This document shows positions 2,480 through 39,655 of a stretch of 64,000 nt of DNA, one piece after another; the first letter of the stretch is position 1, and every line of letters starts with the position of its first letter. A program made the position numbers and the translations under genes. Below the pieces are notes generated by a model that worked only from the letters and a program-made list of their open reading frames with translations, was not told where the DNA came from and made no database searches. Where the stretch lies: the NCBI RefSeq assembly GCF_054482525.1, contig NZ_CM137006.1, one strand, 5' to 3'.

Positions 2480-2517
2480 TGAACACGCTGTCCGCGCTGT
2501 CGGGCAGCGTTTGAACA

Positions 2518-20156: not shown

Positions 20157-21371
20157 ATGAAGATCGTAAAGGCTGAAGTTTTTGTTACCTGTCCGGGGCG
20201 TAATTTCGTCACATTAAAAATCACCACTGAGGACGGTATTACGGGCCTTGGGGATGCCACCCTCAATGGACGTGAGCTTTCCGTGGCCTCTTATTTGCAG
20301 GATCACCTTTGTCCGCAGCTTATTGGTCGCGATGCGCACCGTATCGAAGATATCTGGCAGTTTTTCTATAAAGGTGCTTACTGGCGTCGCGGTCCGGTTA
20401 CGATGTCGGCCATTTCAGCGGTTGATATGGCGCTGTGGGATATTAAAGCCAAAGCTGCCAACATGCCGCTTTACCAGTTACTCGGCGGCGCGTCTCGTGA
20501 AGGGGTGATGGTTTATTGCCATACCACCGGTCACAGTATTGATGAAGCTCTGGATGATTATGCCCGTCATCAGGAGCTGGGATTCAAAGCCATCCGCGTG
20601 CAGTGCGGAATCCCTGGTATGAAAACCACCTACGGCATGTCGAAAGGTAAAGGTCTGGCTTATGAACCCGCAACCAAAGGACAGTGGCCGGAAGAGCAGC
20701 TGTGGTCGACGGAGAAATACCTCGATTTCATGCCGAAATTGTTTGACGCGGTACGTAACAAGTTTGGTTTTAATGAACATTTGCTGCATGACATGCACCA
20801 TCGCTTAACGCCTATTGAAGCGGCGCGCTTTGGTAAAAGCATTGAAGATTATCGCATGTTCTGGATGGAAGACCCGACGCCTGCGGAAAACCAGGAATGC
20901 TTCCGTCTCATTCGCCAACATACCGTCACACCCATCGCGGTGGGTGAAGTCTTCAACAGCATCTGGGACTGCAAGCAACTGATTGAAGAGCAACTTATCG
21001 ATTATATCCGCACTACGCTGACCCACGCGGGTGGCATTACCGGTATGCGCCGGATTGCCGATTTTGCTTCGCTGTATCAGGTACGTACTGGCTCACACGG
21101 TCCTTCCGATTTGTCACCAGTCTGCATGGCTGCGGCGCTGCACTTTGATCTGTGGGTCCCCAATTTCGGTGTCCAGGAATACATGGGTTATTCCGAACAA
21201 ATGCTCGAAGTCTTCCCGCACAACTGGACTTTCGATAACGGCTATATGCATCCGGGAGACAAACCGGGTCTTGGCATCGAATTCGATGAAAAGCTGGCGG
21301 CGAAATATCCCTATGAACCTGCTTATCTGCCAGTCGCACGTCTGGAAGATGGCACGCTGTGGAACTGGTAA
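20157..21371 (+). CDS. rspA: starvation-sensing protein RspA (enolase-superfamily mannonate dehydratase family)
   Basis: 404 aa from [17 protein letters not shown] with AAGGAA RBS; track ORF starts 11 codons upstream. Confidence 0.92.
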
Positions 21372-21382
21372 GGAGTAAGATA

Positions 21383-22402
21383 ATGAAAAGCATTTTAATT
21401 GAAAAACCGAATCAACTGGCAATTATCGAACGTGAAATACCCACCCCGTCAGCGGGTGAAGTACGAGTAAAAGTGAAACTTGCCGGAATTTGTGGTTCAG
21501 ATAGCCATATTTACCGTGGGCATAATCCTTTTGCGAAATATCCGCGCGTCATTGGTCATGAATTCTTTGGCGTCATTGATGCAGTGGGTGAAGGCGTGGA
21601 AAGCGCCAGAGTCGGTGAACGCGTTGCTGTCGATCCGGTGGTCAGCTGTGGGCATTGCTATCCGTGCTCTATAGGTAAGCCGAACGTTTGTACGACACTG
21701 GCTGTATTAGGTGTGCATGCTGACGGTGGTTTCAGTGAATATGCCGTGGCTCCGGCAAAAAATGCGTGGAAAATTCCTGAAGCAGTGGCCGATCAATATG
21801 CGGTGATGATCGAACCTTTTACCATTGCGGCGAACGTAACCGGTCATGGTCAACCGACTGAAAATGATACCGTTCTGGTTTACGGTGCCGGTCCAATCGG
21901 TCTGACGATCGTTCAGGTATTAAAAGGCGTCTATAACGTTAAAAATGTGATTGTTGCCGATCGCATTGATGAACGACTGGAAAAAGCGAAAGAGAGCGGG
22001 GCTGACTGGGCGATTAATAACAGCCAGACACCGCTTGGCGAGATTTTCGCTGAAAAAGGCATCAAGCCGACATTAATTATCGATGCGGCTTGTCATCCTT
22101 CAATCCTGAAAGAAGCCGTAACGCTGGCTTCTCCAGCGGCACGTATTGTATTGATGGGGTTCTCCAGTGAACCGTCTGAAGTGATTCAGCAAGGAATTAC
22201 CGGAAAAGAACTCTCTATTTTCTCTTCACGCTTAAATGCAAATAAATTCCCGGTCGTTATCGACTGGTTAAGTAAAGGGTTAATTAAACCAGAAAAACTA
22301 ATTACCCATACGTTTGATTTCCAGCATGTTGCTGATGCCATTAGTTTATTTGAACAGGATCAAAAGCATTGCTGCAAAGTCTTACTCACTTTTTCTGAAT
22401 AA
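21383..22402 (+). CDS. rspB: starvation-sensing protein RspB (Zn-dependent alcohol dehydrogenase family)
   Basis: 339 aa from MKSILIEKPNQ with AAGGAG RBS right after rspA stop; GHEFFG and GxGxxG motifs. Confidence 0.92.
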   Translation: MKSILIEKPNQLAIIEREIPTPSAGEVRVKVKLAGICGSDSHIYRGHNPFAKYPRVIGHEFFGVIDAVGEGVESARVGERVAVDPVVSCGHCYPCSIGKPNVCTTLAVLGVHADGGFSEYAVAPAKNAWKIPEAVADQYAVMIEPFTIAANVTGHGQPTENDTVLVYGAGPIGLTIVQVLKGVYNVKNVIVADRIDERLEKAKESGADWAINNSQTPLGEIFAEKGIKPTLIIDAACHPSILKEAVTLASPAARIVLMGFSSEPSEVIQQGITGKELSIFSSRLNANKFPVVIDWLSKGLIKPEKLITHTFDFQHVADAISLFEQDQKHCCKVLLTFSE

Positions 22403-22459
22403 TACCAATAACGGCGAGTAAGTAGTACGCATCTTACCTCTTTTTTAGAGATAACCATT

Positions 22460-23827
22460 ATGACAATAGAAAAACACGAAAGAAGCACTAAGGATTTGGT
22501 GAAAGCAGCAGTATCGGGATGGCTGGGCACTGCGCTTGAATTTATGGATTTCCAGTTATATTCGCTCGGCGCAGCGTTAGTGTTTCATGAAATATTTTTT
22601 CCTGAATCATCAACGGCAATGGCGTTAATTCTGGCAATGGGAACCTACGGTGCAGGTTATGTGGCGCGTATTGTCGGAGCATTTATTTTCGGCAAAATGG
22701 GCGACAGAATCGGGCGTAAAAAAGTGCTCTTTATTACCATCACTATGATGGGGATCTGTACCACCTTAATTGGTGTGCTGCCGACCTATGCACAAATTGG
22801 TGTGTTTGCGCCAATTTTGCTGGTGACGCTGCGTATTATTCAGGGATTGGGTGCAGGTGCGGAAATTTCTGGTGCCGGTACGATGCTGGCGGAATATGCG
22901 CCAAAAGGTAAGCGCGGAATTATCTCCTCATTTGTGGCTATGGGAACTAACTGCGGAACCTTGAGCGCAACGGCAATCTGGGCCTTTATGTTCTTCATTC
23001 TCAGTAAAGAGGAACTGCTGGCGTGGGGATGGCGTATACCGTTCCTGGCGAGCGTTGTCGTGATGGTCTTTGCTATCTGGTTGCGTATGAATCTGAAAGA
23101 AAGCCCGGTCTTTGAGAAGGTTAACGACAGCAACCAACCGACAGCAAAATCTGCACCTGCTGGTAGCATGTTCCAGAGCAAATCCTTCTGGCTGGCAACA
23201 GGGCTGCGTTTTGGTCAGGCTGGTAACTCCGGTTTAATTCAGACTTTCCTCGCAGGCTATTTAGTGCAGACGTTATTGTTTAACAAAGCAATTCCAACAG
23301 ATGCATTGATGATCAGTTCGATTCTCGGCTTTATGACCATTCCGTTCCTTGGTTGGTTATCCGATAAAATAGGTCGCCGGATCCCGTATATTATTATGAA
23401 TACCTCTGCGATTGTGCTGGCGTGGCCAATGCTTTCTATCATCGTAGATAAAAGCTATGCCCCGAGCACCATTATGGTTGCACTGATTGTGATTCATAAC
23501 TGTGCGGTGCTGGGATTATTTGCTCTGGAAAACATTACCATGGCAGAAATGTTCGGCTGTAAAAACCGCTTTACCCGGATGGCCATTTCTAAAGAAATTG
23601 GTGGTCTTATCGCTTCCGGTTTTGGTCCTATCCTGGCGGGTATTTTCTGCACCATGACGGAATCCTGGTATCCGATCGCCATTATGATCATGGCATATTC
23701 AGTGATTGGTTTAATCTCTGCGCTGAAAATGCCAGAAGTGAAAGACCGTGATTTAAGTGCACTGGAAGATGCCGCGGAAGATCAACCGCGTGTTGTAACA
23801 GCTGCGCAACCTTCAAGAAGTCTGTAA
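22460..23827 (+). CDS. ydfJ: MFS-type transporter YdfJ, full-length 455 aa
   Basis: uninterrupted ORF 58 bp downstream of rspB; from memory this gene is split by Qin prophage in K-12 MG1655. Confidence 0.85.
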   Translation: MTIEKHERSTKDLVKAAVSGWLGTALEFMDFQLYSLGAALVFHEIFFPESSTAMALILAMGTYGAGYVARIVGAFIFGKMGDRIGRKKVLFITITMMGICTTLIGVLPTYAQIGVFAPILLVTLRIIQGLGAGAEISGAGTMLAEYAPKGKRGIISSFVAMGTNCGTLSATAIWAFMFFILSKEELLAWGWRIPFLASVVVMVFAIWLRMNLKESPVFEKVNDSNQPTAKSAPAGSMFQSKSFWLATGLRFGQAGNSGLIQTFLAGYLVQTLLFNKAIPTDALMISSILGFMTIPFLGWLSDKIGRRIPYIIMNTSAIVLAWPMLSIIVDKSYAPSTIMVALIVIHNCAVLGLFALENITMAEMFGCKNRFTRMAISKEIGGLIASGFGPILAGIFCTMTESWYPIAIMIMAYSVIGLISALKMPEVKDRDLSALEDAAEDQPRVVTAAQPSRSL

Positions 23828-23916: not shown

Positions 23917-25377
23917 ATGGGAAATAATTTGTTATCAGCAAAAGCGACGCTCCCTGTTTATGATCGTAATAACCTGGCCCCAAGAATTGTTCATTTAGGC
24001 TTTGGTGCATTTCACCGTGCGCATCAGGGCGTGTATGCCGATATTCTTGCTACGGAACATTTCAGTGACTGGGGATATTATGAGGTCAATTTAATCGGCG
24101 GCGAACAGCAAATTGCCGATTTACAACAGCAAGATAATCTTTATACCGTTGCGGAAATGTCGGCCGATGCGTGGACGGCTCGCGTCGTTGGCGTCGTTAA
24201 AAAAGCCTTGCACATACAAATAGATGGCTTAGAAACCGTGCTGGCTGCGATGTGTGAACCGCAAATCGCGATTGTCTCTCTGACAATCACCGAAAAAGGG
24301 TATTTCCACTCTCCGGCGACCGGACAGTTAATGCTCGATCACCCGATGGTCGTTGCCGACGTACAAAATCCCCACCAGCCGAAAACTGCAACAGGGGTGA
24401 TTGTCGAGGCGCTGGCTCGCCGTAAAGCGGCAGGTCTTCCCGCATTTACCGTCATGTCATGTGACAACATGCCAGAAAACGGTCATGTTATGCGTGACGT
24501 TGTCACTTCCTACGCGCAAGCTGTTGATGTAAAACTGGCACAATGGATCGAAGAAAACGTGACTTTCCCATCAACAATGGTGGACCGTATTGTGCCCGCA
24601 GTGACGCAGGATACGCTGGCGAAAATCGAACAACTTACCGGTGTGCGCGATCCTGCGGGCGTTGCCTGTGAACCTTTCCGCCAGTGGGTAATAGAAGATA
24701 ACTTTGTTGCCGGACGTCCGGAATGGGAAAAAGCGGGAGCCGAACTGGTTAGTGATGTGCTGCCTTATGAAGAGATGAAGTTGCGCATGCTCAACGGCAG
24801 TCATTCATTCCTGGCGTATCTGGGGTATCTTGCCGGATATCAGCACATTAATGACTGCATGGAAGATGAACATTATCGTCATGCAGCGTATGCCTTGATG
24901 TTGCAGGAACAAGCGCCGACGTTGAAAGTGCAGGGCGTTGATTTGCAAGATTACGCTAACCGATTAATTGAACGCTATAGCAACCCGGCGCTACGTCATC
25001 GAACCTGGCAGATTGCGATGGATGGCAGCCAGAAATTGCCACAGCGGATGTTGGATTCTGTTCGCTGGCATCTGGCGCATGACAGCAAGTTCGATCTGCT
25101 GGCGCTGGGCGTCGCAGGTTGGATGCGTTATGTCGGTGGTGTTGATGAACAGGGAAATCCGATAGAAATCAGTGACCCACTGTTACCTGTTATTCAGAAG
25201 GCTGTACAAAGTAGTGCCGAAGGGAAAGCGCGCGTCCAGTCATTGCTGGCGATTAAGGCGATCTTTGGTGATGATTTGCCAGACAATAGCTTGTTTACTG
25301 CAAAAGTGACGGAAGCGTACTTGTCTTTATTAGCGCATGGTGCGAAAGCGACCGTGGCGAAATATTCCGTGAAGTAA
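23917..25377 (+). CDS. ydfI: mannitol-dehydrogenase-family oxidoreductase YdfI
   Basis: 486 aa; N-terminal Rossmann-like [12 protein letters not shown]; matches YdfI as recalled. Confidence 0.88.
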
Positions 25378-25384
25378 AAAAAGC

Positions 25385-25405
25385 AATGCCGCCATCGGCG
25401 GCATT
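25385..25405 (-). terminator. hairpin aatgccgcc/ggcggcatt with flanking A/T runs between convergent ydfI and ydfZ
   Basis: 9-bp perfect stem; on minus strand followed by GCTTTTTTTA (ydfZ terminator); A-tract on plus side suggests bidirectional use. Confidence 0.6.
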
Positions 25406-25412
25406 CACACGC

Positions 25413-25616
25413 TTAGTTCATGCCGAGACGAATCAGGTCCAGAGGTGCCAGTTTCTCTTCACAACCTTCAACAACTACGGTTTTTCCGCGGCGGATTTGC
25501 TCAGCGGTCAGACCTTCAGTATCAATCGACAGGATCTTGCCAGTGTGACCGGTGCCGCTAACCATAACACGGCTGCCAGTGGTGATTGCGTTACGGTTAC
25601 GATCGTAGGTCGTCAT
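25413..25616 (-). CDS. ydfZ: small protein YdfZ (67 aa; putative selenium-binding)
   Basis: 67-aa ORF matches YdfZ as recalled. Confidence 0.85.
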
Positions 25617-25792
25617 AGGTGTTTTCTCCTTTCTGATTTACAGTCGAAGCCCACGTAACGGGCGCACTATAAATACTCCTGTCGAGTGAAATATTTTTTG
25701 TTTTTGATCAAGCTCACATCTTTTTTGATGCATGCATGAGCCATAAGGCGGGGGGAAAGACTCTCACCCCGGATGGGATGAGAGGAAATGAA

Positions 25793-26479
25793 TTACTCTT
25801 CGCTAAACCAGTCGCTGTTTTCCTGACGGATCTGGCGCACGGATTCGCTGATTTCCTGCAAATGTTGCGTCATTGCACGTTCTACCGCATCGCCATCACG
25901 TTTTTGCAGGGCAGAGAAAATCTCAAGATGCTGGCGTAACAGCATTTCTGGTGGAGAAACGTGGTCGAAACTCATATAGCGCACGCGATCAACGGTCGCT
26001 TTCAGGTTCTCAATGGTATCCCACGCCAGTTGACAGTCGGCAATCTGGGTCAGGAGTTGATGGAAGTTGTCATCAAGTTCAAAAAAATCATCCAGTTGCT
26101 TGCGCTCAATGGCAATGCGTTGCTGGTGAAGATTTTGTTCCAGTTGGTAGCACTGGCTTTCGGTAATCATGCTCGCCGCCCGACGCGCCACCGCGCACTC
26201 AATGGCCTGACGGATAAAACTGCCGTTGCGCACCTGGGCCATGGAAATTTTGTTGACGTAGCTGCCACGCTGCGGACGAATTTGAATCAGGCCGTTTTCC
26301 GCCAGTTTAATAAAGGCTTCACGAACCGGCTGGCGTGACACATTGAAACGAACAGAAACTTCTTTTTCCGACAACGGTGTGCCTGGTGCAATCAGGCAAT
26401 GGACAATGTCGCGACGAAGAATACGATAAATCTGCTGATTGACAGGCTGTGTGGGATTAAGTTGCGTTTCGACGGTCAT
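25793..26479 (-). CDS. ydfH: GntR/FadR-family transcriptional regulator YdfH
   Basis: 228 aa with N-terminal GntR-type HTH. Confidence 0.88.
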
Positions 26480-26567
26480 TCGTTCTTGCTTGTGAGTGAG
26501 TTAACTGCATGAGTCTACCACTTTTTTGTGACAAGCAATAACCCGGCAGTTACGCCGGGTATAAAAA

Positions 26568-27314
26568 TTACTGACGGTGGACATTCAGTCCGGCATAGCT
26601 TTGGGTAACCGGCATCATTTCCAGGGTATTGATATTGACGTGAGCAGGCAGCGTTGACACCCACCAGACGGCTTCGCTGACATCTTCTGGCGTCAATGCA
26701 ACGGTATTTTGATAGGTTTTTTCCGCTTTACCGTCATCGCCTTTAAAGCGGACATTGGAAAACTCGGTGCCACCCACCAGACCCGGCTCGATGTCGGTGA
26801 CGCGCACCGCCGTACCATGCAGGTCCGTACGCAGATTCAGGCTAAACTGACGAACAAACGCTTTCGTCGCACCGTAAACGTTACCACCGGCATACGGCCA
26901 GCTACCAGCCGTTGAGCCAATGTTAATAATATGACCATGATTACGTTCAACCATACCCGGTAAGACGGCGCGCGTCATATATACCAGGCCTTTGTTGTTG
27001 GTATCAATCATCGTTTCCCAGTCTTCAACGCTGGCTTTATGCGCAGGCTCCATGCCCAACGCCAGACCGGCATTATTTACCAGGATATCAATATTGCACC
27101 ACTCGGCAGGAAGCGATGCCAGCATCTCTTCAATAGCGGCGCGGTTGCGAACGTCCAGTTGGGCGATATACAGATTATCTCCCAGTTCGTCTTTTAACTC
27201 CTGCAACCGCTCCTGGCGACGGCCAGTGGCGATAACTTTATGCCCTTGTTGAATAAAACGACGAGTAATGCATTCACCAAAACCTGCCGTTGCTCCAGTT
27301 ACTAAAACGATCAT
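26568..27314 (-). CDS. ydfG: NADP-dependent 3-hydroxy acid dehydrogenase YdfG (SDR family)
   Basis: 248 aa from MIVLVTGATAGFGE (TGxxxGxG) with catalytic YGATK motif. Confidence 0.92.
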   Translation of the reverse strand: MIVLVTGATAGFGECITRRFIQQGHKVIATGRRQERLQELKDELGDNLYIAQLDVRNRAAIEEMLASLPAEWCNIDILVNNAGLALGMEPAHKASVEDWETMIDTNNKGLVYMTRAVLPGMVERNHGHIINIGSTAGSWPYAGGNVYGATKAFVRQFSLNLRTDLHGTAVRVTDIEPGLVGGTEFSNVRFKGDDGKAEKTYQNTVALTPEDVSEAVWWVSTLPAHVNINTLEMMPVTQSYAGLNVHRQ

Positions 27315-27450
27315 CTCACTGTTCCTCAACGCTTTTGTGTGTCAATAACATAGCACGTGATGCTTAAGAGCGGGTAATACTGGTTTGCAAGATTGCACTC
27401 CGTTATCAGTAAGCCTACGCTATGGAACACCTCGCGTTCAGGAGAAGAAA

Positions 27451-29496
27451 ATGACAACAATGAATCCTTTCCTTGTGCAAAGCACACTGCCGTATCTGGC
27501 TCCCCATTTTGATCAAATTTCCAATCATCACTATCGCCCGGCATTCGATGAGGGAATGCTGCAAAAGCGGGCAGAAATTACTGCCATCGCGCTTAACCCG
27601 CAAACGCCTGATTTCAACAATACTATTCTGGCACTGGAACAAAGCGGAGAATTACTTACCCGCGTTACCAGCGTCTTTTTTGCGATGACTGCGGCGCATA
27701 CCAATGATGAATTACAGCGTCTTGATGAACAGTTTTCCGCTGAACTGGCGGAACTGGCTAATGATATCTATCTGAACGGTGAATTATTCGCGCGGGTAGA
27801 TGCTGTCTGGCAGCGCCGAGAATCCCTGGGGCTTGATAGTGAATCCATCCGCCTGGTGGAGGTGATTCATCAACGTTTTGTCCTTGCCGGAGCCAAACTT
27901 GCGCAAGCTGATAAAGCAAAATTAAAAGTACTGAATACAGAAGCTGCGACCCTGACCAGCCAGTTTAACCAGCGGTTACTGGCAGCAAATAAATCCGGCG
28001 GTCTGGTTGTGAACGATATCGCGCAGCTGGCAGGAATAAGTGAGCAAGAGATTGCGCTGGCGGCAGAGGCGGCTCGCGAGAAAGGTCTGGATAACAAATG
28101 GCTGATTCCGCTGCTGAATACCACCCAACAACCGGCGCTTGCCGAAATGTGCGATCGCGCGACGCGTGAAAAACTGTTTATTGCGGGCTGGACGCGAGCG
28201 GAAAAAAATGATGCCAATGATACCCGCGCTATCATTCAACGTCTGGTGGAGATCCGTGCACAACAGGCAACATTACTTGGTTTTCCTCATTATGCCGCAT
28301 GGAAAATCGCCGATCAGATGGCAAAAACACCTGAAGCAGCACTCAACTTTATGCGGGAAATTGTTCCAGCGGCGCGTCAACGTGCGAGCGATGAATTAGC
28401 CTCCATACAGGCGGTTATTGATAAGCAGCAGGGCGGGTTTAGCGCGCAGCCGTGGGACTGGGCATTTTATGCCGAGCAGGTAAGACGTGAGAAATTCGAT
28501 CTCGATGAATCGCAGCTCAAGCCATATTTTGAATTAAACACGGTGTTGAATGAAGGTGTATTCTGGACCGCGAATCAGCTCTTCGGTATTAAGTTTGTCG
28601 AACGTTTTGATATTCCTGTCTACCATCCTGACGTTCGTGTGTGGGAAATTTTTGATCATAATGGCGTGGGGCTGGCGTTATTTTACGGTGATTTCTTCGC
28701 CCGTGATTCAAAAAGCGGCGGTGCATGGATGGGCAATTTTGTTGAGCAATCAACGCTTAATGAAACGCACCCGGTAATTTATAACGTCTGCAATTATCAG
28801 CAACCCGCCGCTGGGGAGCCTGCGTTGTTACTCTGGGATGATGTCATAACCTTATTCCATGAATTTGGTCATACGCTGCACGGCCTTTTTGCCCGCCAGC
28901 GTTATGCCACGCTTTCCGGCACCAACACGCCGCGTGATTTTGTCGAATTTCCGTCGCAAATCAACGAACACTGGGCAACGCATCCGCAGGTATTCGCTCG
29001 CTACGCCCGGCATTATCAGAGCGGGGCAGCAATGCCTGAAGAGCTGCAACAGAAAATGCGTAATGCCAGCCTGTTCAACAAAGGGTATGAGATGAGCGAA
29101 CTGCTTAGCGCCGCACTTCTCGATATGCGCTGGCATTGCCTGGAAGAAAACGAAGCAATGCAGGATGTCAATGATTTCGAATTGCGGGCGCTGGTGGCAG
29201 AAAATATGGATCTTCCCGCTATACCGCCACGCTATCGCAGCAGTTATTTCGCCCATATTTTTGGTGGCGGATATGCCGCAGGTTATTACGCTTATCTGTG
29301 GACGCAAATGTTGGCCGATGATGGTTACCAGTGGTTTGTTGAGCAGGGCGGATTAACGCGTGAAAATGGGCTGCGTTTTCGCGAGGCGATCCTTTCCAGA
29401 GGTAACAGCGAGGATCTGGAACGCCTGTATCGACAATGGCGCGGTAAGGCACCTCAGATTATGCCGATGCTGCAACATCGTGGCTTGAACGTATAA
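27451..29496 (+). CDS. dcp: dipeptidyl carboxypeptidase II Dcp (M3 zinc metallopeptidase)
   Basis: 681 aa from MTTMNPFLVQ with GGAGAAG RBS; HEFGH zinc-binding motif present; track ORF begins 22 codons upstream. Confidence 0.92.
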   Translation: MTTMNPFLVQSTLPYLAPHFDQISNHHYRPAFDEGMLQKRAEITAIALNPQTPDFNNTILALEQSGELLTRVTSVFFAMTAAHTNDELQRLDEQFSAELAELANDIYLNGELFARVDAVWQRRESLGLDSESIRLVEVIHQRFVLAGAKLAQADKAKLKVLNTEAATLTSQFNQRLLAANKSGGLVVNDIAQLAGISEQEIALAAEAAREKGLDNKWLIPLLNTTQQPALAEMCDRATREKLFIAGWTRAEKNDANDTRAIIQRLVEIRAQQATLLGFPHYAAWKIADQMAKTPEAALNFMREIVPAARQRASDELASIQAVIDKQQGGFSAQPWDWAFYAEQVRREKFDLDESQLKPYFELNTVLNEGVFWTANQLFGIKFVERFDIPVYHPDVRVWEIFDHNGVGLALFYGDFFARDSKSGGAWMGNFVEQSTLNETHPVIYNVCNYQQPAAGEPALLLWDDVITLFHEFGHTLHGLFARQRYATLSGTNTPRDFVEFPSQINEHWATHPQVFARYARHYQSGAAMPEELQQKMRNASLFNKGYEMSELLSAALLDMRWHCLEENEAMQDVNDFELRALVAENMDLPAIPPRYRSSYFAHIFGGGYAAGYYAYLWTQMLADDGYQWFVEQGGLTRENGLRFREAILSRGNSEDLERLYRQWRGKAPQIMPMLQHRGLNV

Positions 29497-29507
29497 ACAC
29501 CACCAAT

Positions 29508-29537
29508 GGCTGGCCTGGAGAAATCGCCAGGCCAGCC
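29508..29537. repeat. 11-bp perfect inverted repeat (ggctggcctgg / ccaggccagcc) between dcp stop and ydeJ remnant
   Basis: seen directly; no U-tract on either side, so terminator or REP-like element. Confidence 0.5.
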
Positions 29538-29540
29538 TGG

Positions 29541-29700
29541 TTAGAGTAGTAATTGCAGCAGCTGGGCGAGGGCAAACCTCACCGCTAATGCGAATGCCGT
29601 TTCGCAGTCGCCAGCAAAATTACTTTTTTTGTATACCCTTCCGTTATAATAATTTTCAAATTTATAAATCTGATTGTTCTGAAATATGTTTAAGACTCTT
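29541..29700 (-). pseudogene. ydeJ: 3'-terminal remnant of CinA/PncC-family gene ydeJ (about 50 codons; start and most of gene absent)
   Basis: minus-frame translation ...NGRVYKKSNFAGDCETAFALAVRFALAQLLQLLL* resembles CinA C-terminal domain end (compare PncC ...FSGDRDAVRRQATAYALQTLWQQFL); no ORF >=60 aa in the 364-bp dcp-ydeI gap where K-12 has a ~520-bp gene. Confidence 0.4.
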
Positions 29701-29860
29701 TAATCTTCTTCTTACTTTAGTGAGTAAAACTCTCTGAATATTTGACAGCTAGTTGCCTGATTTTAAATGCCTTATAACAATTGGCAGTATTCTTATTTGT
29801 CAATTATAAAAATAGCAACCAGACTTAATAAGTCAAACCAAACGCAATTAAGGAGTCAGT

Positions 29861-30253
29861 ATGAAATTTCAGGCCATTGTATTAGCAAGTTTTCTTGTCA
29901 TGCCTTATGCGTTGGCAGATGACCAGGGCGGATTAAAACAGGATGCAGCGCCACCGCCGCCTCATGCAATAGAAGATGGCTATCGCGGAACCGATGATGC
30001 AAAAAAAATGACCGTTGATTTCGCAAAAAAAATGCACGATGGCGCTTCGGTTTCACTACGCGGTAATTTGATTTCTCACAAAGGAGAGGACCGTTACGTT
30101 TTTCGCGATAAGAGCGGTGAAATTAATGTCGTTATTCCTGCGGCCGTCTTTGATGGACGAGAAGTTCAGCCGGACCAGATGATCAACATTAGCGGCAGTC
30201 TGGATAAGAAAAGCGCGCCGGCCGTCGTTCGGGTCACTCATTTGCAGAAATAA
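29861..30253 (+). CDS. ydeI: periplasmic BOF/YgiW-family stress protein YdeI
   Basis: 130 aa with signal peptide; AAGGAG RBS; matches YdeI as recalled. Confidence 0.88.
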
Positions 30254-30507
30254 AAATAAATTAGCCTGATGGCCTGAACTACTGGGCCATTAGGGTATTG
30301 GGTTATGCTATTTGTCATCCTTTTATTTACGATAATGCAGAGGTAATTTACAGAATTAAACACTTTTTTATCTGCTGATTTTGTTTCAAATCACAATGTT
30401 ATCTCAGAGATGACTCATAACTTAGGATTTCTATGAAAATATTGACGTAATTTTGCTTTTCTCTCGTTAGAATAGCGCGCACAAGGAACTGTGAAAAAGG
30501 AGTGGCA

Positions 30508-31398
30508 ATGATCAAGAAGACAACGGAAATTGATGCCATCTTGTTAAATCTCAATAAGGCTATCGATGCCCACTACCAGTGGCTGGTAAGTATGTTTCAC
30601 AGCGTAGTCGCGAGAGATGCCAGTAAGCCAGAAATAACGGATAACCATTCTTATGGACTGTGCCAGTTTGGTCGGTGGCTTGATCATCTGGGGCCACTCG
30701 ATAACGATGAATTACCTTACGTTCGGCTAATGGATTCTGCCCATCAACATATGCATAACTGTGGTCGGGAATTAATGCTGGCTATTGTTGAAAATCACTG
30801 GCAGGACGCGCATTTCGGCGCCTTTCAGGAAGGGTTGCTTTCTTTTACTGCGGCATTAACCGATTACAAAATTTATTTGCTGACGATCCGTAGCAATATG
30901 GATGTTTTGACGGGATTGCCGGGTCGTCGGGTTCTTGATGAATCCTTTGATCATCAGTTACGCAACGCTGAGCCTCTGAATCTTTATTTAATGTTGTTGG
31001 ATATTGACCGATTTAAATTGGTTAATGATACCTACGGGCATTTAATCGGCGATGTAGTATTACGCACCCTGGCAACTTACTTAGCCAGTTGGACGCGTGA
31101 TTACGAAACGGTTTATCGCTACGGGGGCGAAGAATTTATCATTATTGTCAAAGCGGCTAATGATGAAGAAGCATGTCGTGCAGGTGTCAGAATTTGCCAG
31201 TTAGTCGATAACCATGCCATCACACATTCTGAAGGGCATATCAACATTACCGTGACAGCAGGTGTCAGTCGCGCATTTCCTGAAGAGCCTCTGGATGTGG
31301 TCATTGGAAGAGCGGACCGGGCAATGTATGAGGGTAAGCAAACCGGAAGAAATCGCTGTATGTTTATTGACGAACAAAACGTGATTAACCGAGTTTAA
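30508..31398 (+). CDS. dgcZ: zinc-regulated diguanylate cyclase DgcZ (YdeH)
   Basis: 296 aa from MIKKTT; N-terminal chemoreceptor zinc-binding-type domain and C-terminal GGDEF domain with RYGGEEF. Confidence 0.92.
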   Translation: MIKKTTEIDAILLNLNKAIDAHYQWLVSMFHSVVARDASKPEITDNHSYGLCQFGRWLDHLGPLDNDELPYVRLMDSAHQHMHNCGRELMLAIVENHWQDAHFGAFQEGLLSFTAALTDYKIYLLTIRSNMDVLTGLPGRRVLDESFDHQLRNAEPLNLYLMLLDIDRFKLVNDTYGHLIGDVVLRTLATYLASWTRDYETVYRYGGEEFIIIVKAANDEEACRAGVRICQLVDNHAITHSEGHINITVTAGVSRAFPEEPLDVVIGRADRAMYEGKQTGRNRCMFIDEQNVINRV

Positions 31399-31449
31399 GC
31401 TCCGTTTAACATTCATTGAGAAAACTGATGCTACTGTGTCAACGATCCG

Positions 31450-31541
31450 TTATCAGTGCAGGAAAATGCCTGTTAGCGTAAAAGCAAAACACAAATCTAT
31501 CCATGCAAGCATTCACCGCCGGTTTACTGGCGGTTTTTTTT
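31450..31541 (+). ncRNA. mgrR: candidate small RNA MgrR (PhoP-regulated), 3' end defined by hairpin ccgcc/ggcgg plus T8
   Basis: intrinsic terminator 31516-31541 in the dgcZ-mgtS gap where MgrR maps in K-12; 5' end not determined; could instead be the dgcZ terminator. Confidence 0.35.
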
Positions 31542-31616
31542 CGCCGTCATAAAAATCAGGCCCCTTGTACAAAGTTGTAACAAGGGGCCGGTTAGGTGAG
31601 GGATTATCTCCGTTCA

Positions 31617-31712
31617 TTAGTCATCCCATTTGTGGCTGAAATACGCGGCCAGAAAACCAGAAAATAAAATTATTCCCAGTACGGCCATAAAAATATTCAT
31701 ATTACCCAGCAT
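31617..31712 (-). CDS. mgtS: 31-aa small membrane protein MgtS (YneM), MLGNMNIFMAVLGIILFSGFLAAYFSHKWDD
   Basis: ATG with GGAGG Shine-Dalgarno; TAA stop followed by hairpin 31561-31589; below ORF-track cutoff. Confidence 0.8.
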   Translation of the reverse strand: MLGNMNIFMAVLGIILFSGFLAAYFSHKWDD

Positions 31713-31838
31713 TATTTGCCTCCGTTTATGGTGTGGTGTGTTTCCTCGCTTACCTTAATTTTCATCTCAATGAGAAAGATATTAGCAGAGGTAACCTAAA
31801 CGAAGGCTGAATTAAATTTTTATTGTGTTCGACTTAAA

Positions 31839-33026
31839 TCAACAAAGCGCGGGCTGCCCCCACGGTCTTGCACGAATTCCTTTTAACATCAGCACCCACG
31901 CAGCAATGATCACCAACGCTAAGATGATAAACAGCGAGAAAGGTGGCAGACTGGTAAGCACTATGCCACTCACTAATGGGTTAATCGCCGCACCAAGCCA
32001 GCCTAAAGACTGAGCGGAAAAATAGCTGGCTTTCATTCCTGGCGGCGCAATATGGTCAATCAACATATACTCGCCCGGCGCATAAATGATTTCACCGACA
32101 GTAAATACCGCAGCTGACATACCCCACAATAGCAGGCTGTTGCCGGAAAAAATAAAACCGACCAGCCCAATGACGAAACAGAGGGTGCCTGCTGTCATCA
32201 GCGCGCGGATGTTAGCCGGGTTAAGTCGGCGGCCCACGGAATATTGCAACGTAACTACCATGGCAGCATTAACCGGAAGAACAACCGCAACCACCTTTTC
32301 GGCAAAATCACCATCAGCAATCACCATCACATATTGTGAAATGCACGAGGCAAATGCGCCGCTAACAAAGGAAGCCAGAAAACCAGAGCAGGTAAACCAC
32401 AACAGTGCTTTATCTTGTAATAAAACTTTCGGCGACCAGGCACTGCCTGTTTCCGTGGCGATGATTTTCTCGCTGCGCTTTACCCAAATTTGAATGAAAA
32501 GCATGGGAAACGCGGAACAGATAGCTGCCAGCCAAAAGGGCAGATTGATGCTCTGCATCACCAACAGCGTGCCGAGCGGCGGACCGATGGTCCAGCCAAT
32601 GTTGAGCATGGTGTAGTTGATTGAGAAGATTTTCGTTTTGCTGGTGGAGGAAAGATTGTCGGCAAACCAGGCTTTCAACACGGTAGCAAAAACGGAATAG
32701 GCGCAGTTAATAAGGGCAAAAAAGAGCACCACCAGCGTCACGTTATTCACTAAAGGAATGGCAATAAAACCGCTGGCGAAGGCGGTAATTGCCAGTAACA
32801 TATAGCGTTTCTTGTCGAACTTATCCGCCAGGATACCAAAACCGAGGCTAAAAACGACGCCAATAGTGAGCGCAATTGTCATCGCATAACCGATTAGATC
32901 GACACTCAGGTTGTACTGGCGACTCAAGTAAATGGTCATAAACGGCAGCGTAGCGCCGCGTCCGATGGTTAATAACAACGACGAGGCAAGAAGGGCGCTG
33001 GTAGAGCGTCGTAGGGATAAGTTCAT
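31839..33026 (-). CDS. ydeE: MFS transporter YdeE (dipeptide/drug efflux)
   Basis: 395-aa MFS-type ORF matches YdeE. Confidence 0.88.
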   Translation of the reverse strand: MNLSLRRSTSALLASSLLLTIGRGATLPFMTIYLSRQYNLSVDLIGYAMTIALTIGVVFSLGFGILADKFDKKRYMLLAITAFASGFIAIPLVNNVTLVVLFFALINCAYSVFATVLKAWFADNLSSTSKTKIFSINYTMLNIGWTIGPPLGTLLVMQSINLPFWLAAICSAFPMLFIQIWVKRSEKIIATETGSAWSPKVLLQDKALLWFTCSGFLASFVSGAFASCISQYVMVIADGDFAEKVVAVVLPVNAAMVVTLQYSVGRRLNPANIRALMTAGTLCFVIGLVGFIFSGNSLLLWGMSAAVFTVGEIIYAPGEYMLIDHIAPPGMKASYFSAQSLGWLGAAINPLVSGIVLTSLPPFSLFIILALVIIAAWVLMLKGIRARPWGQPALC

Positions 33027-33220
33027 TTGTCTGTCCGGCAGTGCGTTTCGTTATGTTTTGTTTTAGAGATGTAAAGAAATAGCATGGCAAAAATCCGAAG
33101 TATAGCGACTTATTTGCGCATTAATGCCGTCGTAATCGCCGACTAACTAATCAACTGTTAAAGAAAAGTAAATTCAGCTAAGTTGATTGCTTACAAAAGA
33201 TGAAATTCAGAGGCGGTAGA

Positions 33221-34120
33221 ATGTCGCGAAAAGATGGGGTGTTGGCGCTACTGGTAGTGGTCGTATGGGGGCTAAATTTTGTGGTCATCAAAGTGGGGCT
33301 TCATAACATGCCACCGCTGATGTTGGCCGGTTTGCGCTTTATGCTGGTTGCTTTTCCGGCTATCTTTTTTGTCGCACGACCGAAAGTACCACTGAATTTG
33401 CTGCTGGGGTATGGATTAACCATCAGTTTTGCGCAGTTTGCTTTTCTTTTTTGTGCCATTAACTTCGGTATGCCTGCTGGACTGGCTTCGCTGGTGTTAC
33501 AGGCACAGGCGTTTTTTACTATCGTGCTTGGCGCGTTTACTTTCGGTGAGCGACTGCATGGCAAACAATTGGCGGGGATCGCCTTAGCGATTTTTGGCGT
33601 ACTTGTGTTAATCGAAGATAGTCTGAACGGTCAGCATGTGGCGATGCTCGGCTTTATGTTGACCCTGGCGGCAGCATTTAGTTGGGCGTGTGGCAACATC
33701 TTCAATAAAAAGATCATGTCGCACTCAACGCGTCCGGCGGTGATGTCGCTGGTAATCTGGAGCGCTTTAATCCCAATCATTCCCTTCTTTGTTGCCTCGC
33801 TGATTCTCGATGGTTCCGCAACCATGATTCACAGTCTGGTTACTATCGATATGACCACCATCTTGTCTCTGATGTATCTGGCGTTTGTGGCGACAATTGT
33901 TGGTTATGGGATCTGGGGGACGTTACTGGGACGCTATGAAACCTGGCGGGTTGCACCGTTATCGTTACTGGTGCCCGTAGTAGGACTGGCAAGTGCGGCA
34001 CTATTGTTGGATGAACGCTTAACGGGTCTACAATTTTTCGGTGCGGTGCTCATTATGACCGGGCTGTATATCAATGTATTTGGCTTGCGGTGGCGTAAAG
34101 CAGTAAAAGTGGGAAGTTAA
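33221..34120 (+). CDS. eamA: cysteine/O-acetylserine exporter EamA (YdeD), DMT superfamily
   Basis: 299 aa from MSRKDGVLALLVVVVWG; track ORF starts 7 codons upstream. Confidence 0.9.
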   Translation: MSRKDGVLALLVVVVWGLNFVVIKVGLHNMPPLMLAGLRFMLVAFPAIFFVARPKVPLNLLLGYGLTISFAQFAFLFCAINFGMPAGLASLVLQAQAFFTIVLGAFTFGERLHGKQLAGIALAIFGVLVLIEDSLNGQHVAMLGFMLTLAAAFSWACGNIFNKKIMSHSTRPAVMSLVIWSALIPIIPFFVASLILDGSATMIHSLVTIDMTTILSLMYLAFVATIVGYGIWGTLLGRYETWRVAPLSLLVPVVGLASAALLLDERLTGLQFFGAVLIMTGLYINVFGLRWRKAVKVGS

Positions 34121-34150
34121 TAAGCCCCGAGATGTCGGGGCCAGAACAAA

Positions 34151-34369
34151 CTACATAGCGTGTTGATTATAATAGGGCACGCCGAGCGCATCCGACTTAT
34201 CACTGCCAGTACCCATGTGATTTAAATCAAACGGTGGTTGTTCCTGCGATGGGGGAACAACCACGACATTGGCACAGGAAGTAACAACCTGCTGCGTGGT
34301 TTGTTCCGCAATGCCCTGCGTGGAAAAGAGAATAAACGCAGCTGCTATTGCGGATAAAAGTGGTTTCAT
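34151..34369 (-). CDS. marB: multiple antibiotic resistance protein MarB (periplasmic)
   Basis: 72 aa with signal peptide, directly downstream of marA. Confidence 0.88.
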   Translation of the reverse strand: MKPLLSAIAAAFILFSTQGIAEQTTQQVVTSCANVVVVPPSQEQPPFDLNHMGTGSDKSDALGVPYYNQHAM

Positions 34370-34400
34370 GATTGCCTCAGTGACGTTGTCACGTTATCAA

Positions 34401-34790
34401 CTAGCTGTTGTAATGATTTAATGGATGTAAAAAGCGCGATTCGCCCTGCATATTGGTCATCCGGTATTTATGCGGCGGAACATCAAAGTAATTTTTGAAG
34501 GTTCGGGTCAGAGTTTGTTGCGACTCGAAGCCATATCGTTCTGCCAGATAGAGTATTGGCTCGTTACTTTCCTTCAGCTTTTGCGCGATTTCCGTCATCT
34601 TACGGCTGCGGATGTATTGGCCTAATGAATGACCGGTTTCTTTTTTAAACATCCGTTGCAGGTGCCATTTGGAGTAACCCGAACGCTCTGACACTTTCTC
34701 CAGTGACAGTGGCGATTCCAGGTTGTCCTCGATCCAGTCCAAAATGCTATGAATGGTAATAGCGTCAGTATTGCGTCTGGACATCGTCAT
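34401..34790 (-). CDS. marA: AraC/XylS-family transcriptional activator MarA
   Basis: 129-aa ORF ([50 protein letters not shown]...) recognised as MarA. Confidence 0.93.
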
Positions 34791-34804
34791 ACCTCTTTTT
34801 TTGT

Positions 34805-35239
34805 TTACGGCAGGACTTTCTTAAGCAAATGCTCAAGTGTTGCCACTTCGTCCGCCGTCAGGTTTTTTGTTAATTCTTGATGCAGGTCCTGGCCAACTAA
34901 TTGATGGCATTGTTCACATATTGCCGCGCCGCTGGTGGTAAGTTTTACCAGTACGCCGCGCTTGTCATTCGGGTTCGGCAACCTTTCCACCCAGCCTTTA
35001 CAGACCAGGCGATCCAGCATACGGGTCAGCGCTCCCAGGTCGACCGACAACACTTTTTTCAGTTCAACCGGAGTAATACACGCCGCGCAGCGGATAGAGC
35101 AGAGCACCTTAAACTGTGCCGCGGTAATATCCAGCGGAGACAGATACTCGTTAAGCAGGCGATCTTTCTTCTGATTAACCATATGGATTAAGCGACCCAA
35201 TGGAATAATTTCATTGAACAGATCGCTGGTACTTTTCAC
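34805..35239 (-). CDS. marR: MarR repressor (144 aa, GTG start) carrying G103S and Y137H relative to K-12
   Basis: translation recognised; codon 103 is AGC (plus 34931-34933) and codon 137 is CAT (plus 34829-34831). Confidence 0.93.
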
Positions 35240-35244
35240 ATTAG

Positions 35245-35338
35245 TTGCCCTGGCAAGTAATTAGTTGCAGGGGATAATATTGCCCAGGCAAGTATAAGTC
35301 AAATGAATGAATTGACCGATGCCACGTTTTGCTAAATC
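35245..35338 (-). promoter_or_regulatory. marO: marO: marRAB promoter with two MarR palindromes (35245-35256, 35280-35291), -10 TATTAT (35274-35279), -35 TTGACT (35297-35302) and marbox (35319-35338)
   Basis: TTGCCnGGGCAA palindromes, hexamers with 17-bp spacer and marbox GATTTAGCAAAACGTGGCAT read on minus strand; matches known marO layout. Confidence 0.85.
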
Positions 35339-35450
35339 GGTTCAAGTTTTGGTCAGTGCGATGCAAGGTTAGCTAAAGAGTGACACTTTATCGTTGTTTA
35401 CCCCTTATACTTTTCGCTGATAACCCAGATACACAGGATAACAACCACCA

Positions 35451-36116
35451 ATGTTAGATTTATTTAAAGCAATTGGCTTGGGGTTGGTGGTGTTACTACC
35501 GTTAGCTAACCCATTAACAACTGTCGCGTTATTTCTTGGCCTGGCAGGCAACATGAACAGTGCCGAACGTAATCGTCAGTCGTTGATGGCCTCGGTGTAC
35601 GTCTTTGCCATCATGATGGTGGCGTATTACGCCGGGCAACTGGTGATGGATACATTTGGCATTTCGATTCCCGGTCTGCGAATTGCAGGCGGCTTAATCG
35701 TCGCGTTTATCGGTTTTCGGATGCTCTTTCCGCAACAGAAAGCAATTGATTCACCGGAAGCGAAAAGCAAGTCGGAAGAGCTGGAAGATGAACCCAGTGC
35801 CAATATTGCCTTTGTACCACTGGCAATGCCAAGTACCGCCGGTCCGGGAACCATTGCAATGATTATTAGCTCGGCGTCCACAGTGCGTCAGAGTTCAACC
35901 TTCGCTGATTGGGTGCTGATGGTTGCGCCGCCGCTGATCTTTTTCCTGGTGGCGGTTATTTTGTGGGGAAGCCTACGCAGCTCTGGCGCAATTATGCGGC
36001 TGGTGGGCAAGGGAGGCATTGAAGCGATCTCCCGCCTGATGGGATTCCTGCTGGTATGTATGGGTGTGCAGTTTATTATTAACGGCATTCTGGAAATCAT
36101 TAAAACGTACCATTAA
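35451..36116 (+). CDS. marC: MarC-family inner-membrane protein
   Basis: 221-aa membrane ORF divergent from marRAB. Confidence 0.9.
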
Positions 36117-36117
36117 A

Positions 36118-36137
36118 AAAGGCCCGAATGGGCCTTT
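36118..36137. terminator. bidirectional hairpin aaaggccc/gggccttt between convergent marC and ydeA
   Basis: 8-bp perfect stem flanked by A-run and T-run. Confidence 0.6.
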
Positions 36138-36140
36138 CAA

Positions 36141-37331
36141 CTATTGCGTCTGTTCTTCGAGTGTCACTGGCCAGCGGCGAAAAATGATGATTGACCATAT
36201 TAACGCGGCAAAAGCAGGCACCGCGCCCACATAACCAATCATCGACATTGACCAGTGCAGACTGACCTGATTACCTACCAACGCGCCAGCGCCGATTCCA
36301 ATATTAAATATCCCCGAGAATAGCGCCATCGCGACGTCGGTGGCATCTGGTGCCAGCGCCAGCACTTTAACCTGCATACCAAGCCCGATGATCATCATCG
36401 CGATCCCCCAGAAAATACTTAGCACCCCGAGGTGTATTTCACTGTTCGCCGCAGGTAGCAGCAGTGCGAGGCACACCAGCAACAACGCAATCGCCGTACT
36501 CACCAACGCAGACGCATACTGATTACCCAGTTTCCCGAAAATCACGCTGCCAATAATGCCCGCACCACCGAGTAATAACAGTAATGCCGTGGCAAAGTTG
36601 GCGCTGAATCCCGCAATGTTTTGCACAAAAGGCTCGATATAGCTGTATGCCGTGTAATGGGCGGTGACAACCACCACAGTTAACAAATAAATGCTCATTA
36701 ATGCCGGGCGGCGGAACAATAGCGGGAGGCTTTTCAATGAACCGGAATGCTCACTGGGCAGCAAGGGAAGTAACTTAATCAGGCACAAAAGGGTAATAAA
36801 CGCCCCGATACCAATCGCGAAGAAGGTCATTCGCCAGCCAAAATACTGCCCCACAATGCGCCCGAGAGGTAAACCTAATACCATTGCCAGTGCTGTACCG
36901 GTGGCAATTAAACTCAACGCCTGCGCTCGCTTCCCGGCCGGAGCCATACGGATCGCCAGAGACGCCGTAATCGACCAGAAAATCGCATGTGCAAAAGCCA
37001 CACCAATGCGACTGATCACCAGAACGGTAAAACTCCACGATAAAAACGACAGTACGTGGCTGGCAATAAACACCACAAACAGGCAGATCAGTAATTTGCG
37101 TCGTTCAACCTGGCTGGTCATTAACATAAAAGGCAATGACATTAGCGCCACAACCCATGCATAAATCGTCAACATGATGCCGACCTGAGCGGTTTGCATG
37201 TGAAAACTTTGCGCAATGTCAGAGAGCAGGCCAACAGGGACAAATTCGGTGGTGTTGAAGATGAAGGCGGCGACTGCCAGCGTAACGACCCGTAGCCACG
37301 CCACTTTGCGGGAAACAGTGTTTGTTGTCAT
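36141..37331 (-). CDS. ydeA: MFS sugar efflux transporter YdeA (SotB)
   Basis: 396-aa MFS ORF matches YdeA. Confidence 0.88.
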
Positions 37332-37480
37332 AACAGATTATCGGGTGAGTTGCGAAAAAGTGATGAAATGATCTTAAAACGGTTAATGATGTGAATACAA
37401 TGCATTTGTGATCTGGATCGCGTTTTCCGTTTCTCTGACGCTGATTCTGTTCCGCGTCAGAGAGTCGGTAACATCACGGT

Positions 37481-38596
37481 TTAATGACGTTCAGGGAGGT
37501 CTGGCGTTTTGGAGGTTGCGGGTATAGGTGGTCTGACAGGGGAGCGAGGCCTGTTTTTCACCAGGTCTTCGTGAGTAACTTTTGGCGGTGTTTCATTTTT
37601 TACAAACAGTTTGAGGGTCCTGCGCGCCATATGTTTGATAATTTTATCATCACTTAATGATGCTGGCATCAACACGTCATTCAAATCACTTTCATTGGGA
37701 TTCATAAATTGGTGATAGTGCAATAACATATTGGCGAAAAATAAAAACAAGTCCTGAAAATGAGGGGGTTCTTGTTCTGCTAAAAGGGATAAAAAGCAGA
37801 TACAGACTTCGGGTAGTACATGTTTGTTAGAACCTAATGAATCCATCAGACTTTGCAATAAATCCTCTTTTAATTCGCTGTCCTTTATGTCAAGAATGGC
37901 GGTGATCAAGTTAGGCTCTTTATTGACGAACCATCTGTGAACTTCAGAGTTATTCCATAATCGGGGGAGTATGACAAAATTACCGCGAGAGATAAAATTC
38001 AGGACAAGCAAATCAAACTGGCGTAAGTAATCTGCAGCGGTATGGTGATCTGGAAGCAGGGGTTCAATATGTGGTGTATGCGCTCTTTTGATGGGAACGC
38101 CAGGGTTGATCATTGGAAATTGTTCAATAAAGTCATTCAGAAACAGGAAGAGCACACGCTCCACGCCGGTCTGAAATACGCGCCCCATAGTGACAGGCTT
38201 TGGGTTGGGAGCGCAAAAAATATTAATTTCCCCATCATGGCGGAAATTATCTAAATAAATAGGGCTTAAATTTATTACTACCTGAAATTCAATATTTTCT
38301 TTGTGTCTTCCATTCCTGGCAGGATAAGTGAGTTTAAATTGAACTTTTTCATTGTATAGCGTGTCGTTACCCCGGAAAGAGGTTCTCTGAATATATGATA
38401 AGTTATCAAGGTTATTAAATATCTTTTTTGTGGCTGAGCTGATGTTTAAAGACGTACGCCACTCTTCATCACATATTATGGTACTGAGTGCATCAATAAA
38501 ATCCTTTAAAACTTCTTTTACCTGAGGTGCAATATTACGTACGGGAAAATCTTCAGGAAGAGATATGTAATTGCTGATGCTTACTGGCGTAACCAT
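37481..38596 (-). CDS. yneK: uncharacterized protein YneK
   Basis: 371-aa ORF matches YneK as recalled; no recognisable motifs. Confidence 0.8.
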   Translation of the reverse strand: MVTPVSISNYISLPEDFPVRNIAPQVKEVLKDFIDALSTIICDEEWRTSLNISSATKKIFNNLDNLSYIQRTSFRGNDTLYNEKVQFKLTYPARNGRHKENIEFQVVINLSPIYLDNFRHDGEINIFCAPNPKPVTMGRVFQTGVERVLFLFLNDFIEQFPMINPGVPIKRAHTPHIEPLLPDHHTAADYLRQFDLLVLNFISRGNFVILPRLWNNSEVHRWFVNKEPNLITAILDIKDSELKEDLLQSLMDSLGSNKHVLPEVCICFLSLLAEQEPPHFQDLFLFFANMLLHYHQFMNPNESDLNDVLMPASLSDDKIIKHMARRTLKLFVKNETPPKVTHEDLVKNRPRSPVRPPIPATSKTPDLPERH

Positions 38597-38679
38597 ATTT
38601 GCCCCATATAGTCATAAGTCATCGGAACATCACTATATAGAGCATATTAGCCGCAAGAACTATCAAAAATAGCTCATTG

Positions 38680-39555
38680 CTAACTCTGTTTTGCCGAGTC
38701 AGACACATCCAGTAGTTGAATAAATGCCTCAAGCGGACGCGTTTTTGCACCGCGACGCCAGACCAGCCATGTTGTTAACCAACGCCATTGCTCAGCTAAC
38801 GGCCAAGCCTCAACCTGGTGATGCCCCGGCATACTTTCCAGCATAGAGCGTGGAATAAGCGCAATGCCAGCTCCTGCGACCACACAGGCCAACATTCCGT
38901 GATAAGACTCCATCTCATGGATAGTTCCCGGAGCGGCACCGTCAGTATGAAACCAGCTCTCGAAGTGGCGACGATACGAACAATTGGCGCGGAAGGCATA
39001 AATGTTACTGCCATTAACCTGACTGGCACGGGTTACTGGCGCATGTCCTTGTGGCGTGACAATCATCAACTCCTCGCGGTACACCGGTATCCCGTCAATG
39101 GCAGTATGGTTAATGGGCCCATCAATAAACGCCGCATTCAGTTTTCCCTCCAGCACCCCTTCCAGCATAGTGCCGGAAGGGCCGGTGGAAAGTGAAAACT
39201 GAATTTTGGGATAACGACGGTTGAATTCCGCCAGCGTGGCCGGAATGCGAACTGCTGCGGTGCTTTCCAGCGAACCAAGAGAAAATAAACCTTGCGGCTC
39301 ATTGCCAGCGACAACGCTCCGCGCTTCATCCACTAACGCGAGAATTTGTTGGCTATAGCGTAAAAAGTTATGCCCGGCAGGAGAGAGACGTAAACGCTGA
39401 TTCTCGCGAATAAACAGATCAACCCCCAGTTCTGTTTCCAGCTGGCGTAGACGGGTAGTGAGATTCGACGGCACGCGATGCACTTTTGCTGCAGCCTGGG
39501 TTATGCTGCCAGCTTCGGCAACCGCGTTGAACATCTCCAGTTGGGTCAGATCCAT
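38680..39555 (-). CDS. yneJ: LysR-family transcriptional regulator YneJ
   Basis: 291 aa with LysR HTH; divergent from sad. Confidence 0.85.
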
Positions 39556-39655
39556 AATATTCTCGATTCATGAATAAGTGGCTTAATATTATTCATTTTA
39601 AAGCAAGAGTAAATCTGCGTATCTTTTTACCATAACCCATAAAGGAGATACCCCG

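Follow-up and report, generated by a model that had tools for sequence, protein, structure and literature searches.

A ydeJ remnant between dcp and ydeI in Escherichia coli and the deletion on a divergent haplotype that produced it

Layout of the dcp-ydeI interval

What has become of ydeJ in those Escherichia coli chromosomes where dcp and ydeI lie unusually close together, and how did that arrangement arise? In K-12-type strains the two genes are separated by 837 bp, an interval that includes the 519-bp, 172-codon ydeJ gene on the minus strand. In the stretch of E. coli chromosome analyzed here (64,000 nucleotides, hereafter the window) the dcp stop codon ends at 29496 and the ydeI ATG lies at 29861, leaving exactly 364 bp. 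A sequence-only reading of this DNA had remarked on the short gap and had placed a CinA-family ydeJ of about 172 codons there in K-12; both points were confirmed from the coordinates and from K-12-lineage genomes. We are highly confident of the following account: ydeJ is here a dead relic, left by a single deletion of about 475 bp on a divergent version of the locus (haplogroup-2), and the window carries an intermediate allele. From about 24 to 50 kb the window is nearly the same as strain 19KM1776 (NZ_CP151009), the two being identical over 24001-40000 and differing by three mismatches over 24001-50000. The features of the locus are as follows.

27451..29496, plus strand: dcp (peptidyl-dipeptidase Dcp), intact by the ORF call and annotated with the same coordinates in NZ_CP151009
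29508..29537, no strand assigned: GC-rich hairpin (perfect 11-bp stem, 8-nt loop), found by folding, between the dcp and ydeJ stop codons
29541..29621, minus strand: ydeJ remnant, comprising the final 26 codons (FAGDCETAFALAVRFALAQLLQLLL) and the stop codon (29541-29543), from TBLASTN, NF002972 and the PGAP pseudogene call
29619..29620, no strand assigned: deletion junction (between 29619 and 29620), 475 bp absent relative to K-12-type alleles, 1 bp (T) of microhomology
29620..29860, no strand assigned: retained ydeJ-ydeI spacer, 241 bp, 27.8% GC, aligning to the K-12 spacer and to that of the intact allele L095 described below
29661..30164, no strand assigned: 504-bp segment kept here and absent from the double-deletion allele, comprising part of the spacer and ydeI codons 1-101
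29861..30253, plus strand: ydeI (YdeI-family OB-fold stress protein), intact in the window by the ORF call and annotation

The dcp gene is convergent with the former ydeJ. The retained spacer contains what was once the distal part of the ydeJ upstream region, together with the whole of the ydeI upstream region, and ydeI itself differs from the K-12 gene by 1.0% of its nucleotides.

The ydeJ remnant is a pseudogene

When the whole 64-kb window was searched by TBLASTN with K-12 YdeJ (b1537; UniProt P31131), residues 147-172 alone were found, at 29621..29544 on the minus strand (88% identity, E 2.5e-9), with no further match elsewhere. The 26-residue tail also matches NF002972, the equivalog model for YdeJ, over positions 148-172 of its 175 (E 4.6e-7). 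Both searches bear out the proposal, made from the letters alone, that the minus strand keeps only a C-terminal tail resembling the end of CinA-domain proteins. A profile search gave no Pfam match of the tail to CinA (PF02464) because the fragment is too short; full-length K-12 YdeJ consists of a single CinA domain (PF02464, E 9e-48; NCBIfam NF002972, 327.7 bits), as do the PncC/CinA-domain NMN deamidases such as E. coli YgaD/PncC, of which the window retains the equivalent of the last helix only.

The remnant occupies the same locus and strand as the K-12 gene, and its position between dcp and ydeI, convergent with dcp, is shared by K-12-type E. coli, Salmonella and other Escherichia. Compared with K-12 ydeJ, codons 1-146, with the start codon, and the proximal upstream region are missing from the window, and the surviving tail reads ..ETAF.., a mark of the divergent haplotype, where K-12 YdeJ has ..ETVL... 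A complete family member would have a CinA domain of about 155 residues and a start codon, whereas the remnant retains 26 of 172 YdeJ residues (81 bp including the stop codon) and neither the start codon nor the ribosome-binding site of the gene. The ORF list contains no in-frame ATG, GTG or TTG that would give an ORF of at least 30 amino acids in the remnant; by our own reading of the frame the sole in-frame start is a GTG, which would give 12 amino acids. Hence, this is a pseudogene remnant and not a functional YdeJ or CinA-family member. PGAP likewise marks 29541..29621 as a pseudogene, 'incomplete; missing N-terminus', in NZ_CP151009 and other genomes. Strains 19KM1776 (NZ_CP151009) and 2779 (NZ_CP103521) have the same structure, junction and pseudogene annotation as the window, with no difference at the locus.

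A single contiguous deletion

Alignment of the gap region with the dcp-ydeJ-ydeI region of a K-12-lineage genome gave a single contiguous gap of 475 bp (1920-2394 of the K-12-lineage locus, L002) between collinear flanks. Lost in the deletion were the GTG start and the rest of ydeJ codons 1-146, the ribosome-binding region, 37 bp of upstream DNA and probably the core promoter of the gene. As 85% of the coding sequence is gone together with the start, the ribosome-binding region and the probable core promoter, the ydeJ allele is null. That a deletion had taken the start and body of ydeJ was the central claim of the sequence-only reading, and it is supported by this alignment, by the pseudogene annotation and by the gene order of outgroups (below).

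By a repeat scan the gap is devoid of direct-repeat families, and the breakpoints are free of IS elements and IS sequence, so the junction has neither hallmark of an IS- or repeat-mediated deletion. A 1-bp ambiguity (T) with no IS and no direct repeat is the signature of a simple illegitimate-recombination deletion. One such event of about 475 bp joined ydeJ codon 147 to a point 37 bp upstream of the start codon.

The deletion lies on a divergent haplotype

The DNA that precedes the remnant had been described from the letters as AT-rich and non-homologous. The first part of this description stands, in that 29620-29860 is AT-rich and is not ydeJ coding sequence. The second part does not, because the segment is homologous to the K-12 ydeJ-ydeI spacer, with identities of 82% over the first 62 bp and 93-95% over the remainder. 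Identity to the spacer of the intact haplogroup-2 allele L095 is 93.5-98.3%. Judged from these alignments, the flanking AT-rich DNA is the native ydeJ-ydeI spacer of a divergent haplotype and not a foreign replacement.

The divergence is concentrated in about 140 bp around the junction, where about 17 positions (about 12%) separate the deletion alleles from K-12; the flanking genes of these alleles differ from K-12 by 1-2%. Within this patch four diverse ydeJ-positive alleles (K-12, O157:H7, A41 and A65EC) are identical to one another. Two other alleles place the origin of the variants. L095, a Logan-assembled contig (SRR33953888) found via YdeJ-related protein clusters, has flanks that identify it as E. 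coli (1-2.7% from K-12) and carries an intact ydeJ that differs from the K-12 gene by 3.9% of its nucleotides; it has the variants seen in the deletion alleles, among them the spacer states and the remnant's ..CETAF.. residues. The complete genome of MFDS1022581 (L099) is a recombinant in which a K-12-like ydeJ body is combined with a haplogroup-2-like upstream patch. Since the patch variants are borne by an intact allele and by a recombinant, the divergence is older than the deletion.

The uniformity of the four ydeJ-positive alleles, set beside deletion alleles that are all about 12% off in the patch and only 1-2% off in the flanking genes, could be read to mean that the roughly 17 differences were made by the deletion itself, through error-prone repair, or by decay after function was lost. 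We consider this very unlikely, as L095 and MFDS1022581 already hold most of the patch variants and, at five to six sites, it is the deletion alleles that match the outgroup and the K-12-type alleles that are derived. Rather, the deletion occurred on a second, older haplotype of the locus that is still extant with an intact ydeJ. Import of the patch from another species was also considered and was ruled out by the presence of the variants in the intact E. coli allele L095 and in the recombinant L099.

The L095 locus (2501-3010) was the only fully haplogroup-2 intact ydeJ found. Its ydeJ has a 9-bp in-frame deletion by which PEG is missing from the GGPEGGEDG loop, and among 5426 complete E. coli genomes the intact alleles most similar to it in the 5' and upstream region were those of two strains, at 96%.

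Frequency of the junction and a second deletion

Those 5426 complete E. coli genomes were the set surveyed for the locus. The ydeJ body was present in 3618 and the ydeI segment in 4371, and a 71-mer spanning the junction was found in 1630, in every case with at least 95% identity. The junction carriers are of two kinds, whose counts are differences between search totals and thus approximate. By this subtraction roughly 680-750 genomes (about 13%) have the window-type structure, and roughly 880-950 (about 16-17%), or roughly half of the junction carriers, have the junction plus a second deletion of 504 bp. The second deletion is equivalent to window positions 29661-30164, has a 2-bp microhomology and leaves the last 30 ydeI codons. 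It was seen in three aligned loci (L003, between 1961 and 1962; L103; L104) and is present in MNCRE44, of ST131, and SF-173, of ST95 (sequence types from PMC4392156 and PMC4645194), so such ExPEC lineages are without YdeJ and also without the YdeI stress protein. Separating the two deletion alleles by the identity of the 71-mer (100% vs 98.6%) was tried and failed, because SF-173 has the exact 71-mer together with the double deletion; the allele counts therefore rest on subtraction.

Window-type and double-deletion genomes have an identical junction and the same flanking variants. As the double deletion shares the first junction and its haplotype, it descends from the window-type allele, so that the window is the intermediate. 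In this order of events the first deletion arose once, on haplogroup-2, and through descent and recombination the allele has reached about 30% of E. coli genomes; the 504-bp deletion took ydeI later, in part of this population.

The locus is prone to loss, as the second deletion and an IS1-mediated deletion occurred here as well and about 180 genomes are missing the ydeJ body yet do not have this junction. It could thus be argued that the identical deletion recurred at a hotspot in separate lineages. Recurrence seems to us most improbable, given that the junction is the same to the base despite a microhomology of 1 bp and that the same rare flanking haplotype accompanies it in every carrier examined, two features that independent events would not both recreate. 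The deletion has a single origin, as judged by the 71-mer count and by a small number of aligned genomes that have the identical junction and the haplotype in common.

A fourth, unrelated allele was seen in strain 2013C_3653 (NZ_CP074866; L088 3736-4736), in which IS1 replaces ydeI and the 5' part of dgcZ and ydeJ is intact.

No description of a ydeJ deletion polymorphism was found in the literature searched. This is an ordinary gene-loss polymorphism of a familiar kind, already annotated as a pseudogene in RefSeq.

The hairpin beyond dcp

The strong 11-bp inverted repeat that had been noticed beside the remnant is real. Its arms are GGCTGGCCTGG (29508-29518) and CCAGGCCAGCC (29527-29537), and the hairpin folds with -28.8 kcal/mol on the plus strand (z -3.5) and -29.2 kcal/mol on the minus strand (z -5.0); none of 200 shuffles folded as well. 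It lies 12 nt past the dcp stop codon and 3 nt past the ydeJ stop codon and has the stem-loop of an intrinsic terminator. No T-run follows the stem (the tail reads TGGTTAGAG on the plus strand, ATTGGTGGTGTTTAT on the minus), and a terminator scan of 29400-29950 found no terminator-like site. The hairpin is present in every allele aligned. Its loop is variable, being AGAAATCG, AGATATCG or ATTTACCG/ATTTATCG according to haplotype, and the stem is largely kept; one stem position varies, from G to A, in A42 and L095.

We infer from the stem-loop that, despite the missing T-run, the hairpin was probably a shared bidirectional terminator and now serves dcp only. In the arrangement left by the deletion it would terminate dcp; the retained spacer carries the ydeI upstream region. 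The persistence of the hairpin is probably due to its position 12 nt from the dcp stop codon.

So strong a hairpin, kept in every allele examined, might instead indicate that remnant and hairpin have taken on a new role, such as that of a small RNA or a micro-ORF. This is extremely improbable: an Rfam scan of the gap gave nothing above noise (best E 0.87), the tail has no usable start for an ORF of 30 amino acids or more (the longest in-frame ORF, in our own reading, is the one of 12), the deletion breaks into what was the ydeJ upstream region at 37 bp from the start codon, and the location just past the dcp stop accounts for the hairpin. A promoter scan gave two weak minus-strand matches, where about one is expected from shuffles.

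Loss rather than gain of ydeJ

The order ydeI-ydeJ-dcp was found in Salmonella enterica subsp. diarizonae (L005), in a protein cluster labeled E. fergusonii (L092) and in a divergent Escherichia (L090) whose dcp is 12% from that of K-12. Three outgroups with ydeJ, together with the surviving ydeJ 3' end in the window, establish the gene-bearing state as ancestral, so that the change was a loss. The converse, that ydeJ was inserted in K-12 and the short gap of the window is ancestral, might draw on the absence of the ydeJ body from about a third of E. coli genomes, but its probability is practically nil since 81 bp of the ydeJ 3' end are still present in the window and all three outgroups have ydeJ at the same position between ydeI and dcp.

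A scan of genome contigs for YdeJ returned, among the matches listed, mostly distant CinA proteins and none from Escherichia; the Salmonella contig L005 was used. Three further loci from divergent 'YdeJ' clusters (L094, L096 and L098) were left out as outgroups. L096 and L098 are K-12-like at this locus, and in L094 and L096 the gene calls around ydeJ are fragmented, a state that we suspect reflects assembly frameshifts. The Dcp of L092 is just 82% identical to that of K-12, about as distant as the Salmonella protein, and the ydeI-ydeJ spacer of L092 is much shorter; this region may be unusually divergent in E. fergusonii, or the label may be wrong.

Function of YdeJ and consequences of its loss

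According to a published report, YdeJ, a CinA-domain paralogue, has no NMN deamidase activity and its active site is degenerate, with altered phosphate-binding blocks and an altered block P-III tyrosine; the YdeJ lineage is described as catalytically inactive, unlike the PncC/CinA NMN deamidases (PMC3855486). A near-identical 173-residue chain was deposited as PDB 5kol under the name 'Uncharacterized protein'. The only phenotype reported for the family is from Salmonella, where ydeJ (rdsA) is intact in the orthologous ydeI-ydeJ-dcp position and encodes a protein with about 60% amino-acid identity to E. coli YdeJ. The Salmonella gene has a supercoiling-sensitive promoter, and more negatively supercoiled DNA was the sole effect of its deletion (PMC7387798).

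YdeJ evolves faster than its neighbors. Its identities to the three outgroups are 86%, 66% and 60%; against the same outgroups Dcp has 94%, 82% and 80%, and YdeI has 98%, 87% and 79%. Such weak constraint, together with frequent natural loss, would fit a dispensable gene. The loss was presumably tolerated by selection or neutral, with dcp termination and ydeI expression unaffected.

A regulatory side-effect on ydeI is nevertheless possible. RcdA is reported to bind the ydeI-ydeJ spacer and to affect ydeI expression in one medium (Shimada et al. 2012, PMC3535384). When the RcdA box TTGTnnACA, a short motif, was sought with at most one mismatch, the sole near-match in the K-12 spacer, TTGTCCACG, lay inside the deleted segment. 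The window spacer has a different near-match to this short motif at 29629-29637. Given the reported effect of RcdA on ydeI, loss of the K-12 site may have altered ydeI regulation.

A bolder proposal is that the stepwise loss, ydeJ first and ydeI later in ExPEC lineages such as ST131 and ST95, was not neutral, a reset of supercoiling or of ydeI expression having been selected. We regard this as unlikely. Were it true, the window would be a living intermediate of an adaptive trajectory, and selection would have favored losing both YdeJ/RdsA, as a modulator of supercoiling, and the one RcdA-box-like site of the K-12 spacer.

In nature ydeJ (rdsA) appears to be dispensable, given that the body of the gene is missing from about one third of complete E. 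coli genomes and that this junction is present in about 30%. This bears on any treatment of YdeJ/RdsA as a general supercoiling regulator, or of its promoter as a reporter, outside Salmonella. The junction can serve as a simple lineage marker, and the window-type and double-deletion alleles provide a natural series for the study of ydeJ and ydeI function.

Annotation and a neighboring site

In both PGAP and NCBIfam NF002972, YdeJ goes under the name '2-oxo-tetronate isomerase', an activity (EC 5.3.1.35) listed for b2739 (PMC12506659). In the literature using the name we found no link to YdeJ. The family name looks like a mislabel, YdeJ being a CinA-domain protein. Elsewhere in the window, at 21359-23827, no prophage separates rspB from ydfJ, which comes directly after it and is intact at 455 codons; strain 19KM1776 (L101 1-22543) has a lambdoid prophage at the rspB-ydfJ site and a ydfJ without its N-terminus.
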